Positions 368-5,852 of a DNA stretch of 64,000 nt are shown in pieces. Location: the NCBI GenBank assembly GCA_001662655.1, contig KV460207.1. One strand, 5' to 3'. How positions within the stretch are numbered: the stretch's first letter is position 1; every line of letters starts with the position of its first letter. The position numbers were made by a program, and so were the translations under genes. The stretch is from Pseudogymnoascus verrucosus. Lineage: Eukaryota. The notes under the pieces are model-generated. The model was given only the letters and a program-made list of their open reading frames with translations, was not told where the DNA came from and made no database searches.

Positions 368-2165
368 TCATTCCCTCATAGTATTCATTAATATCGTCTT
401 CATCATTTCGTTACCGACCTTTGTAGCATCAGCAAACCTAGGCTCAAAGAATTTCCTGGTGCTTTCGAATCGGTCCTTGTATGACTCAAAATCTCCAAAG
501 GTCACACAGTCAGACCACCCACGTGCAGCAAATGTAAATTCGAGGTCGTCGGATCTGAATGTGTTGTCCTCAATAGCAATTCGAATAACATCGTCTAGTA
601 ATGCGGGCTTGCGAAATAGATATTCGGTGACACCCAGCCATAGCCGGAACAGGGGAGTAGAACAGATCATATGATCGTATGGGACGATACCCATCCTCGA
701 CCAGCAGTCAACCATGGCCAGAAGACTAAGATGGTTATTTGGGGTCGGTTCGTCCGGTTTCTTCCCAAGTGAGAACCTATCAAGGACTTCGTCTTCGAGG
801 AGGATCCCGTGATGCGACTTCTGTGCATCGAAAACAGCAGCGCCAGCAGCTCTGATACGCCTTTCAAATTCTTCCCTGTTCCCTCCCAGCATCAGCTTGA
901 ACAAATCAGTGACGGACTGAGAATATTGGCGTATTTGTTCTTTGGCATATGGGTTCAGTATTGCTAGTCCTGCGTACACGTGCCATTTTTGCGAATAGAT
1001 ACGGAGAGTCAAGTTGATCTTGACATTTTCGATGCCTCCAACGTAACGCGCGATTTCCCATGGAAACTGGGCGTTAGCATGCCATGCTTTCCCCATGGAC
1101 AGGAATGCAGCGTGAGTCACTGCTTGCGTGTCTGCGGTGATGCGGTCATGTTCTGTAGCACTGAGATATACATGCTGCGAGCCAAGACAAGAAAGGACTT
1201 TCTCGACTCGGTCGAAATTGGCCTGAGAGGCACGATGTTTTATCAAGACCTATATCATCATCAGCATACGCAACGATGGCTTCTCGCATTGTGCAACTAA
1301 CCAACGGCTGGCCCTTGGGATCAACATTAGGTCCGTGCAAAGAATGGCAAGAGACGATATCAACGTCTTTTGGCAGGTGGGCCTCGAACGCCGCAATCTC
1401 CGGGGATTTACAAGAAGTCTGTCCACCAACAATAGCGCCTTGTTTTGTTGCTATATAATGTTAGCCTCACGAGTCCCCTGTCGAATCAATCACGGCAAAG
1501 AGACACATACATGGCCCATACAGTGCCACAACTTTGTCAATGGAGGCGGCCTCAACATTGTAAATGATATAATCGCTCGCTCTCGAGACCAAGTGGCCGT
1601 TGGGTAGTATCTCAACTTGTTTCTATTGGGTACTCAGCACGATGTGCAAGAATTCTATGTACAGATATATATACTCTACTGGAGAATTCATCCACTAGAT
1701 CCAGATATTTTTCTTCTCTATCACAAGCATTGACTCTGCAATGGCCTTGTTAGTACTGTTTACCCCAAACTCACGAAGTGTTCGGCATTATATGCGAAGT
1801 TGTGCCTGATGCTGATATACTGTTAGCTTGAGTCCTTCCATGTGAAATAGAGAAACAAGTGTTCAATAAGTTGATTCAGACAAATAAAAATAAGGTAGCT
1901 GAGATTATTCATCAGTGAAAGTCGACCCCCAATCCCGGTGCCAGAAAGGCAGTCGGGCTGGGTGAAGACGATGCGTCGAGCCAAATGCACTCAAGTCATC
2001 ATTATGTGGGGGGTGTCGCGAGAAGAAAAAATTGAATCTTACCATCTTGTTGGTTGCCCAACGGCAGGGATTGGTAAATTACCTCCATCCTGCATCGCTG
2101 AGCTGCCTTGCGTACATCTTCCCCATATCCCCCATGCCAATGATGCCAACGACAAAGTTCTCCAT
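368..2165 (-). CDS. TYR1: Prephenate dehydrogenase (NADP+); exons approx. 2165-2083, 1735-1675, 1622-1511, 1450-1302, 1249-368
   Basis: Spliced translation MENFVVGIIGMGDMGKMYARQLSDAGWR|VNACDREEKY...|KQVEILPNGHLVSRASDYIIYNVEA... (Rossmann GxGxxG motif). C-terminal part has HDRITADTQAVTHAAFLSMG and YSQKWHVYAGLAILNP, typical of fungal Tyr1. GT-AG introns keep the frame. Confidence 0.93.
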
Positions 2166-2499: not shown

Positions 2500-3137
<638 letters not shown>

Positions 3138-3686
3138 ACGATGGCTTCTGTGGATATTTGGGTTTTTGTGCAGATTTGACAATCACGCGGAGAACGGCTC
3201 TAATTGCCTGGTCTTCAATACTGCTATGTTGCCACGCGACAGTAGAGCACATCAGTAGAAAGAATCGAACCCATGCTCAAGTACACGTTTGCTCCAAATA
3301 TGCTGTGATAAGTGATAAAAGACGATGCTTGTGTGGCTGTAACTCTAACCTAATCCGTTTCAATAATACCTTAATGGGGCCATTGGTAGTTTCTTTTGGG
3401 ACTCCTTGAATTCAAAATGATTGCATTCAGCTGTCCTGCGGCTCGACCCCTGGGCACAACCCCGCCACGGAAGGACCCCGCCATGAAATGTCTCTGAACT
3501 GGAGACAACATTCACGCAAGTCTGATATTCATATGTAGAGATAGAGATTTCGTATGGTCCATACAAAATATGACAGGACCGGGGTATTGCATTCCTCAAA
3601 GTAAGATAAGATATTCTTTCAAAGGGTGGTGTTTTGTATGTGGATGCTGCACAGTATGGCACAATGAGAAATACTTCTCGCCCTCA

Positions 3687-5216
3687 CTACCACCCAATCG
3701 TGCCCTTTTCCCTCCCGCCCTCATCCAGTTCAACCATAACCGGCGCATATTCACCCCTTTCATCCTCGGCCTCCAGGTCTTCCATTTCTGCATCCACGTA
3801 TTCACCATCCTCGAGCTGGATCTTACCAACTCTAAGATAGTTACCCCCCAGGTCCCAGCCCCATTTCGACAGCCAAGATTCCAGTCTTCCAAAGGCCGCT
3901 TTTAACTCGTTCTCCTCCCTGCTCAAACCGTCAGGTTTTGAAGATAGCTGCTCAGTAAGTCGTGATTTGAAAATTGTCAATTCTACCTTCAACTCATCTT
4001 GTAAGTGGTTGCTGTGGTCGAATATGCTGCCTTGGAGGTATTCATCGTCATAGACCAGCTGCGAGTGGAAGACTTCAATAACTTTAGCAAAGAAGTGAGC
4101 CTCTTCCACGGCGAATCTGAATGCCTTGAAGAGTATTTTGACCACATGGCCCCATTGTTCCATGCAACAAAGATTGCTAAGCAAGACTCCGGTCAAATAG
4201 CAGAACTGCAACTCCCCAAGCACATCGTTCGGTCCATCTGAAGTACAGCTCTCCGCTATAACACCCCTCACATGCGACGAACTATCCATGGCTTGCTCAC
4301 TTCGAGCTCGACCTATCGCCGTCTCCGAGTAAGTTTTAGATCCAGCCGGGAAAATAAACCCGAGCTTCTTTTCCTCGGCAATAGCAACATCGACAGGATT
4401 TGGAGCGGGAACTATGCCCATTGCCATTTGGTGTTGGTTGTCGGCTGGTTTGGTATCCGTCGACTTGGGTTCGTCCATGGACGTCACTTTCCAGTTATTC
4501 CAGGTGCCACCGATTACCCTGCTGAGCATAGGACCTTTGATCGCGAATGTAAGATCTTGCCAGGTCCTGGGATCATCACCATGTGCTTCCGCTGGATTTC
4601 CCCTCGATTTTGAAAGTTCCGGCGTTTGGGCAGCTCGTACATCGTATGGCAGTAATGTGCCGTAGCTTGAATGTATATTGTCTTTTTGCCTCCTGGTTTC
4701 AACAGCACTGTCCTCATCCTCCAGAGTCTCTGTGTTTCTATCCCACTTCTTAACGAAAACCTCCCCCGGTTCTCCAGGCTGTCTTTGGTTTGAGATAATC
4801 CAGAACCCATTCCGAGTCGATATCTCAGACATGGAACCGCCATAGACAAAATGTGGCCCAGGAGGTAATTCGCGAACCCCTCCGAAGTGGTGATTCTTTT
4901 CAATATTTAAGCCGACTGTGTCATAGCCAATGAAGGAGCCTGGCGGTACGCCAGCAATGATCACGACGTCTCCTGCCTGAAGGTACTGTGATGACCCATA
5001 TTCTTCCCGTGAGTTGCCAGCATGTAACTGGAGCGAGTTCATGGGAGAGCCACTCAAATCCCCGGTTGAGGCATCCGCGCGAGGCGCAGTTCCTGTTCCT
5101 GGACTCCTACCTGATCTCGGCAGCGGCCGCAACGGCAGCGCTATCGGCCGAGTCAAGTGTTGCTGGCGGTGATTCGACTCATTCTGAGATGACGAATCCT
5201 TGTTATTTGAGGCCAT
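3687..5216 (-). CDS. AAR2: AAR2 (A1 cistron splicing factor, U5 snRNP assembly)
   Basis: Long ORF with FGGVRELPPGPHFVY, VLGELQFCYLTGVLLSNLCCMEQW and an acidic C-terminal EDERGEYAPVMVEL. The start is uncertain (first ATG at 5216). Confidence 0.85.
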   Translation of the reverse strand: MASNNKDSSSQNESNHRQQHLTRPIALPLRPLPRSGRSPGTGTAPRADASTGDLSGSPMNSLQLHAGNSREEYGSSQYLQAGDVVIIAGVPPGSFIGYDTVGLNIEKNHHFGGVRELPPGPHFVYGGSMSEISTRNGFWIISNQRQPGEPGEVFVKKWDRNTETLEDEDSAVETRRQKDNIHSSYGTLLPYDVRAAQTPELSKSRGNPAEAHGDDPRTWQDLTFAIKGPMLSRVIGGTWNNWKVTSMDEPKSTDTKPADNQHQMAMGIVPAPNPVDVAIAEEKKLGFIFPAGSKTYSETAIGRARSEQAMDSSSHVRGVIAESCTSDGPNDVLGELQFCYLTGVLLSNLCCMEQWGHVVKILFKAFRFAVEEAHFFAKVIEVFHSQLVYDDEYLQGSIFDHSNHLQDELKVELTIFKSRLTEQLSSKPDGLSREENELKAAFGRLESWLSKWGWDLGGNYLRVGKIQLEDGEYVDAEMEDLEAEDERGEYAPVMVELDEGGREKGTIGW

Positions 5217-5852
5217 ATTCCGAGGGTTGCAGAGTAGCAGTAACGGTGAAAGGCGCAATCGAGGCCTATCGGGCGTGAAGGCTCGAGATTTATATATATA
5301 GTAGTCCCGTGACCCAAGTCGTCCTTGTAGTATCTCGGGATATAAATTATATTCTCATGGCATCGTCTTTGAAGATATGGGTGGCATTATAGGTCGCTGG
5401 CATGTCAAAGGTAGAGTATTGTGCAAATTACGATCCTGAGAAAATGGCAGGTGCTGTATTTGCCTCGACGCCTTTTAGCTCATAATGCCAAAAATACGGG
5501 TCATAGATTGAATTAGTGCTTGCTTTGCAATATCTACTGTTTCTAAATTAAATATAGAAACTGATCACTGTACTAAAATATAAATACGAATACAATATAA
5601 AGTGCACCACATTCAAACCTTCCAGCTATCAAACGTCGTCGATTTAGGCATTCGGTGTGGTATGAGCGGCTCCTTGCCTTGACCACCGAACCTGGACTAG
5701 CACTAGCCGCCGATCCAAGACCAGATTCCCGAACAAATCTATCCCGTGACTTTCACGTTAATCGCAGCATGACAAGAGCATCTGCATGGTGCGCTTGTTT
5801 TGTGAAAGGTTAGGCGACTTCTTGCATTCACTTTATTTTCCAGATTATCGCG

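Follow-up and report, generated by a model that had tools for sequence, protein, structure and literature searches.

Intron 1 of TYR1, the prephenate dehydrogenase gene found on contig KV460207.1 of Pseudogymnoascus verrucosus (NCBI GenBank assembly GCA_001662655.1), raises the question of why it is so long. In the 64,000-nucleotide stretch of that contig that was analysed (the window), it occupies 347 nucleotides (nt) (1736..2082, minus strand), as compared with 52 nt for intron 2. An earlier note on this DNA had pointed out the disparity, and proposed that the intron is an undescribed RNA switch that senses a metabolite and selects between competing donor sites, or else that it is an intron nested in an intron. 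Fungal TPP riboswitches such as that of NMT1 control alternative 5' splice sites, and the former idea was attractive. The features described here speak for the latter: intron 1 of TYR1 is in all likelihood, as far as its sequence can tell, a compound intervening sequence in which an inner canonical intron, bearing a small nucleolar RNA (snoRNA) of the snR13 family, is nested within an outer intron with a weak donor.

Relatives of the locus were obtained from fungal metagenome contigs found with the large TYR1 exon as the query (51 loci, with 65-99% protein identity). Exon 1 is present in 39 of these loci, the remaining 12 ending short upstream, and in all 39 intron 1 interrupts the identical codon. 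Its length recurs also: 309-537 nt in 38 of the 39 loci, with a single short intron of 129 nt in the locus designated L032. Such a long first intron in all relatives but one led us to suspect a functional cargo. The comparisons below are based on 36 distinct long introns, that of the window included, or, for the snoRNA element, on an alignment of 34 sequences. The closest relative of the window's intron is that of locus L001.

A box C/D snoRNA in intron 1 of TYR1

The conserved core of the intron is a box C/D snoRNA of the snR13 type, located with a few flanking bases at 1870..2008 on the minus strand (covariance model match of 148.2 bits); the mature snoRNA probably spans approximately 2007-1874. 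Blocks of conservation belonging to this element stand out sharply from intron sequence that is otherwise unalignable. Box C (AUGAUGA, 1996..2002, minus strand) contains a UGAUGA that is invariant in all 34 sequences, and is followed in the alignment by the block CUUGAGUGCAUUUGGCU, of which the part GCAUUUGGCU is likewise invariant in 34 of 34. This block holds the D' guide GAGUGCAUUUGGCU (1979..1992, minus strand; core GCAUUUGGCU at 1988-1979), which runs into a degenerate D' box, UCGA (1976..1979, minus strand), having the form U[CA]GA in most relatives and aligned to the D' box in the published snR13 alignment. Next come an internal stem-loop (1921..1969, minus strand) and an invariant box C' (UGAUGA, 1909..1914, minus strand). 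The block that follows box C' in the alignment is CUCAGCUACCUUA, succeeded by a U-rich spacer up to box D (CUGA, 1876..1879, minus strand), which is invariant in 34 of 34. Between boxes C' and D lies an extra base-pairing element, AGCUACCUUA (1891..1900, minus strand), complementary to ribosomal RNA (rRNA) just 5' of the methylation site.

The identity of the snoRNA is indicated most directly by its guide. The core GCAUUUGGCU is identical to the guide of Neurospora crassa CD1, as printed in its pairing with the 26S target, and to the yeast snR13 row designated L2281/0. CD1 is reported as a cloned, intronic box C/D snoRNA of 125 nt, with a D' guide (10/0 match) targeted to 26S-Am2242 and with snR13 as its yeast homologue (PMC2780460). 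Compared by eye, the first 23 nt of the two snoRNAs, counted from box C and extending through their guides, are shared by CD1 and the window, as is AAUCUCAGCUACCUUA. The order of elements is that of the snR13 alignment of van Nues et al., which runs from box C through the guide, D', the stem-loop, C' and the extra pairing to L2278-1 to box D, and for which the alignment methods give Pezizomycotina genomes among the sources (PMC3116282). The extra pairing element AGCUACCUU (1900-1891, between C' and D) aligns to that published alignment and to the Rfam consensus of snR13. When the 148-nt element alone was scanned against Rfam, snR13 (RF01223) was the sole snoRNA family returned, as a local match to model positions 83-122 that spans the part from C' to D, including AGCUACCUU and box D. 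A scan of the region 1500-2400 at E values up to 10 returned no riboswitch and no snoRNA; a match to IRES_Bip on the plus strand of that region is spurious. Trichophyton rubrum is likewise reported to express a homologue of snR13, 135 nt long and intronic (PMC3890542).

From these sequence comparisons, the element at 1870-2008 is orthologous to snR13 of yeast and to CD1 of N. crassa. In yeast, snR13 guides the methylations A2280m and A2281m in helix 70/71 of 25S rRNA (PMC4174444); its guide is among the shortest, and the targets of the guide and of the extra pairing overlap (PMC3116282). The predicted function of the D' guide in the window is 2'-O-methylation of the large-subunit rRNA adenosines that match yeast A2280 and A2281, and the second conserved element of the snoRNA would pair with the rRNA adjoining the guide target. 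The snoRNA is thus an additional copy of a known family, previously unannotated at this locus.

Covariation of the internal stem

The earlier note had seen a hairpin in the intron, and in this it was right: the hairpin at 1969-1921 is real and covarying, and forms the snoRNA's own internal stem. The interval from D' to C' folds to a stem-loop in all 34 sequences despite differences in the sequence of the stem. RNAalifold, applied to a MAFFT alignment, missed the middle stem, two groups of sequences being one column out of register; a covariance model was therefore built from the alignment with a structure set by hand, and the sequences were realigned to the model. In this model-fitted alignment, 87.7% of hairpin cells are able to pair; shuffled alignments give 77.9%, and sliding the partners gives 46.3% or less. 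Both sides have changed in 12 of the 14 pairs, compared with 5.5 in shuffles (none of 500 shuffles reaches this number).

The covariance model was searched against 48 sources, four duplicate loci having been left out. It found one copy in the window (1870-2008, minus strand) and one in each of 38 loci, in total 39 of the 48 sources. Nine sources gave no match, and of these L032 alone contains intron 1 in full.

A second set of splicing signals, conserved inside the first

Two sets of splicing signals can be recognized in intron 1. The outer set comprises the donor GTAATT (2077..2082, minus strand; no G at +5), the final branch point TACTAAC (1755-1749) and the acceptor AG (1737-1736), all as the earlier note had described them. 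The inner set begins with the stronger donor GTAAGA, 40 nt inside the intron at 2042 (2037..2042, minus strand; G at +5), a site that is kept in all 36 introns, and continues with the branch-point element GCTAAC (1822..1827, minus strand; branch A at 1823), which is also conserved. The acceptor that had been assigned to this branch point needed correction: the AG at 1821-1820 is 2 nt from the inner branch A, and the more likely acceptor is the AG at 1813-1812 (minus strand; alternatively 1807-1806), the first AG at least 8 nt past the branch A, so that the site moves from 1820 to about 1812. The inner intron is accordingly delimited as 1812..2042 (minus strand; 231 nt, or 237 nt with the alternative AG), with an outer 5' flank of 40 nt (2043..2082, minus strand) and an outer 3' flank of 76 nt (1736..1811, minus strand), and it avoids all the outer elements (2082-2077, 1755-1749 and 1737-1736). 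The in-frame stop reading AGG TAA, to which significance had been attached, is indeed present and is trivial, being the GTAA of the donor; it recurs in most relatives.

The inner signals are conserved in position throughout the relatives. All 36 introns have a GTRNG inner donor 32-67 nt upstream of box C, which in 30 of them is the sole such site in the 5' flank, and a CTRAY inner branch element at a median distance of 55 nt past box D; most have an AG 11-17 nt past the inner branch A. The inner unit is 225-264 nt long in the relatives, as against 309-537 nt for the whole intron, and the variation is borne by an outer 5' flank of 38-215 nt, unconserved in sequence, and an outer 3' flank of 37-85 nt. 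Thus, all 36 introns retain the inner signals in spite of flanks that defy alignment. The two kinds of donor differ in strength: a G at +5 is present in 7 of 36 outer donors and in 36 of 36 inner donors. The outer 3' flanks contain the final branch point and acceptor and no conserved donor, and are therefore removable only from an upstream donor. About 50 nt separate the snoRNA from the inner branch point downstream of it, a spacing like that of other intronic snoRNAs, and 40 nt separate it from the inner 5' splice site; in N. crassa, the distance of intronic snoRNAs from the 5' splice site is reported to be mostly 41-60 nt (PMC2780460).

Several additional motifs were noted in the outer flanks. 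In eight of the 36 introns (L028, L029, L031, L033, L038, L041, L042 and L046), the 5' flank, of 66-215 nt, holds a CTRAY element and an AG of its own before the inner donor, which could serve as a decoy or belong to a third unit of splicing; no CTRAY and AG of that kind is present in the 40-nt 5' flank of the window. Thirteen of the 36 introns have the motif YTGRGYCR (for example, TTGAGCCA) at a distance of 15-25 nt before the inner donor, and the window has a near-match to it, TTGGGCAA, at about 2062-2051. In the outer 3' flank of the window there is a donor-like GTGAGT (1774-1769, minus strand), which the earlier note had counted among the candidate donors; it is present, and identical letters align with it in L001 only. 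Situated 20 nt before the final branch point, it is too near to define an intron.

With these signals, we infer the following order of events. The branch point nearest to the strong inner donor would be its partner, and the inner intron would leave first as a snoRNA-bearing lariat, to be debranched and then trimmed to a small nucleolar ribonucleoprotein (snoRNP). An outer intron of about 116 nt would then be left, and its splicing would give the TYR1 messenger RNA (mRNA). The weakness of the outer donor would lower the risk of a dead-end joining of 2083 to 1811, which runs into a stop codon.

Natural loss of the inner unit in a relative

The one short intron among the relatives bears directly on the limits of the inner unit. 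L032 is a 6.6-kilobase contig with several genes, the neighbours of TYR1 being on both strands, and it retains introns 2 and 3 of the gene. Compared with locus L034, L032 lacks exactly 232 nt, starting with GTAAGC and ending with AG, and this gap is the inner intron that the rule of the first AG (at least 8 nt past the branch A) predicts for L034; what remains is an ordinary intron of 129 nt. The two loci differ at 11 of 1854 bases downstream and at 27 of 346 bases upstream of exon 1. An exact loss from GT to AG is what intron loss mediated by a reverse transcript would leave, and it indicates that the inner unit behaves as an intron. The covariance model finds no copy of snR13 in the 6.6 kilobases around TYR1 in L032, and the snoRNA of this organism must be located elsewhere or have been lost.

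The alternative of an intron nested in an intron is therefore supported in the DNA, by inner splice signals that are kept in 36 of 36 introns and by one exact natural loss. When the features named in the earlier note are taken together, three go beyond chance, namely the recurrent length of the intron, the inner splice sites and the hairpin, and the long-range pairing discussed below does not.

RNA libraries and points of doubt

RNA data for the region were limited to contigs and joints from RNA libraries. In the metatranscriptome X15, contig 20 corresponds to 1606-1812 and contig 21 to 1783-1988, each with two differing letters, and they overlap by 30 nt. Such an overlap would mark a break at a branch of the assembly graph, if the assembly was built, as is assumed here, of 31-letter words. 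Since bases 2043 and 1812 are identical, a junction of 2043 to 1811 would place a branch exactly between 1812 and 1813, and the break at 1812 is a weak hint of this junction. A joint from 2003 to 2079 in X12 is non-canonical (ending AT..AA) and was set aside, and loose ends of X12 at 1976 and 2099 fit nothing at this locus. Contigs of X15 leave 1-220 and 2311-2420 uncovered, a gap that is given no weight here.

Several observations weigh against the interpretation of intron 1 as a nested intron with snR13 as its cargo. The break between the X15 contigs would be explained equally by a strain variant; these contigs retain intron 2 and read across the final acceptor at 1736 without a splice, and may represent pre-mRNA or DNA. 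No RNA junction for either splicing step is present among the joints listed, most of which come from RPS14. The gap in L032 could in principle be a genomic deletion that merely resembles intron loss. As for the snoRNA, the Rfam match to snR13 scores 12.7 bits (E = 8.8), far under the gathering score of 47, which is a curated cut-off and not a biological feature, and the alignment used for covariation was fitted to the structure of its own model and hence leans toward it.

Alternative explanations

One alternative accepts the nested design and adds a purpose to it. It has some chance, a minor one in our estimation, of being a conserved dosage device, in which the strong inner intron is always spliced, so that snR13 is obtained from every transcript, while the weak outer intron limits, and could regulate, the TYR1 mRNA. 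It is just as tentative that transcripts retaining the outer intron keep the stop and are degraded by nonsense-mediated decay, uncoupling the output of snoRNA from that of TYR1 protein. Of the 36 introns, 29 have a weak outer donor and all have G at +5 of the inner donor, and outer flanks, if retained, leave an in-frame stop right after exon 1, as this explanation would have it. Weak donors, however, are not special in this gene, the donor of intron 2 (GTATAT) likewise having no G at +5; moreover, the design may persist simply because two exact deletions would be needed to reach a simple intron.

It is improbable that intron 1 is a single ordinary snoRNA-hosting intron, its 347 nt (2082 to 1736) being excised all at once, and equally so that the inner motifs are kept for some other use, for instance as U1 and U2 sites that aid snoRNP assembly or as back-up sites, without ever being joined. 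The outer signals are intact and are required for the reading frame in all relatives, and the RNA joints listed include no inner junction, both of which agree with removal in one step. Such an intron would not be expected to have a donor, a branch point and an AG set at fixed distances in all 36 introns, nor would a natural variant be expected to lack exactly the unit that those signals bound, as L032 does. The distance from box D is a further difficulty: the final branch point is about 125 nt away from it, and the inner branch A in the relatives a median of 55 nt.

The switch originally proposed depended on a pairing of CTTGAGT (1995-1989) with ACTCAAG (1833-1827), by which the hairpin would be tied to the inner branch point. 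The two strings are complementary, as had been noted, and their pairing is not conserved. Its partner ACTCAAG occurs in one of the 36 introns, for which reason the 7-bp pairing is attributed to chance; the longest complementary run at this place is 7 in the window, at most 6 in the other 35 introns and 4 in L001. In the 701-nt region around the pairing there are 18 inverted pairs of at least 7 nt, and the CTTGAGT arm itself falls in the guide region of the snoRNA. A switch of this kind would need a pairing, kept across relatives, by which a splice site is masked or unmasked, and the 7-bp helix is present in one of the 36 introns; no conserved ligand-binding aptamer was detected in the Rfam scan at E values up to 10.

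That a ligand-responsive RNA picks the donor at 2082 or at 2042, in the manner of the fungal TPP riboswitch, and so tunes TYR1 to metabolites of the tyrosine pathway is consequently most implausible: there are two competing donors, a transcript with the inner donor joined to the final acceptor would keep the stop codon, and the hairpin is real and conserved, but snR13 fully explains the conserved sequence and the hairpin, no riboswitch family is matched, the helix meant to tie the structure to a splice site is peculiar to one intron, and the whole intron folds in an ordinary manner, no better than shuffled sequences (z = -1.44; 7 of 100 shuffles fold as well).

Comparison with known snoRNAs and nested introns

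The snoRNA in TYR1 agrees with yeast snR13 (RF01223), N. crassa CD1 and T. rubrum TRnc_338, as these have been reported, in its box C, guide GAGUGCAUUUGGC, degenerate D' box (UCGA or UAGA), stem-loop, box C', extra element AGCUACCUU and box D, as well as in its length of about 125-135 nt and in the 10-nt perfect match of its D' guide. The N. crassa and T. rubrum copies are described as intronic, as is this one. Among the differences, the stem-loop of yeast snR13, as aligned in print, is shorter, and the copy in TYR1 scores well under the Rfam threshold. No host gene for the N. crassa and T. rubrum copies was found in the published tables and supplements consulted; here the host is TYR1.

As judged from the DNA, the architecture of intron 1 fits that of a stwintron sensu lato, defined for Pezizomycotina (Fekete et al. 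2021, PMC8469720) as one canonical intron lodged inside another. In common with the stwintrons reported there, it has two full, nested sets of U2-type signals, the donor, branch point and acceptor of the outer intron are uninterrupted, and removal is expected to proceed from the inside out. It differs from those described in that its inner intron carries a snoRNA, a design found in 36 of 36 introns, and in that it is recognized here at the level of DNA signals. In Euascomycetes, introns associated with snoRNAs are said to have been 'excised and inserted', and stepwise splicing of nested introns has been reported in the snR41-snR70-snR51 cluster (Luo et al. 2013, PMC3596301). The snoRNA-bearing introns that in that account vanish from one site and appear at another as units are paralleled by the loss in L032; the cases described there concern non-coding hosts and an extra intron inside a snoRNA, in contrast to a snoRNA intron inside another intron at the TYR1 locus. 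A literature search, incomplete in its coverage, yielded no paper in which snR13 or CD1 is connected with a prephenate dehydrogenase gene as its host, and none in which a stwintron is connected with a snoRNA as its cargo.

The likeness to the TPP riboswitch of NMT1 goes no further than a pair of competing donors, with one expected to be non-productive; TYR1 intron 1 differs from it in having no aptamer, no conserved sequestering helix and no match in Rfam.

The host gene and its neighbours

The coding part of TYR1 exon 1 is found at 2083..2165 on the minus strand, with its ATG at 2165-2163, and ends ...AGW R, the R codon being split after AG at the outer donor (AG/GTAATT); this end of exon 1 is kept across the 39 loci. 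Exon 2 (1675..1735, minus strand) is followed by intron 2 (1623..1674, minus strand). The translation contains a GxGxxG motif, and the large exon matches the Pfam family PDH_C (30.3 bits, with a cut-off of 22).

Divergent from TYR1, on the plus strand at 2500-3140, there is a gene that may encode an RPS14 (uS11)-like protein, the label being a reading of its translation. X15 contigs skip three GT..AG introns of this gene (2565 to 2616, 2686 to 2769 and 2930 to 2984), the third of which is also missing from one X7 contig. Upstream of the RPS14-like gene, an open frame of 555 residues occupies 3687-5354 on the minus strand.

Implications for the biology of nested introns

In place of a riboswitch, the TYR1 locus receives an annotation, that of an snR13 gene in intron 1. 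As an annotation this is useful, and as an example neat, but it is no new kind of system: what is gained is a well-conserved nested intron with a clear inner cargo, of which one natural genome has lost exactly the inner unit. In animals, there are snoRNA host genes in which the outputs of snoRNA and host mRNA are uncoupled, and the dosage device considered above, if true, would be their fungal counterpart. TYR1 intron 1 offers a convenient model for the order of splicing in nested fungal introns, and could show how the spacing between an intronic snoRNA and its branch point is maintained, and whether the outputs of snoRNA and host mRNA uncouple.

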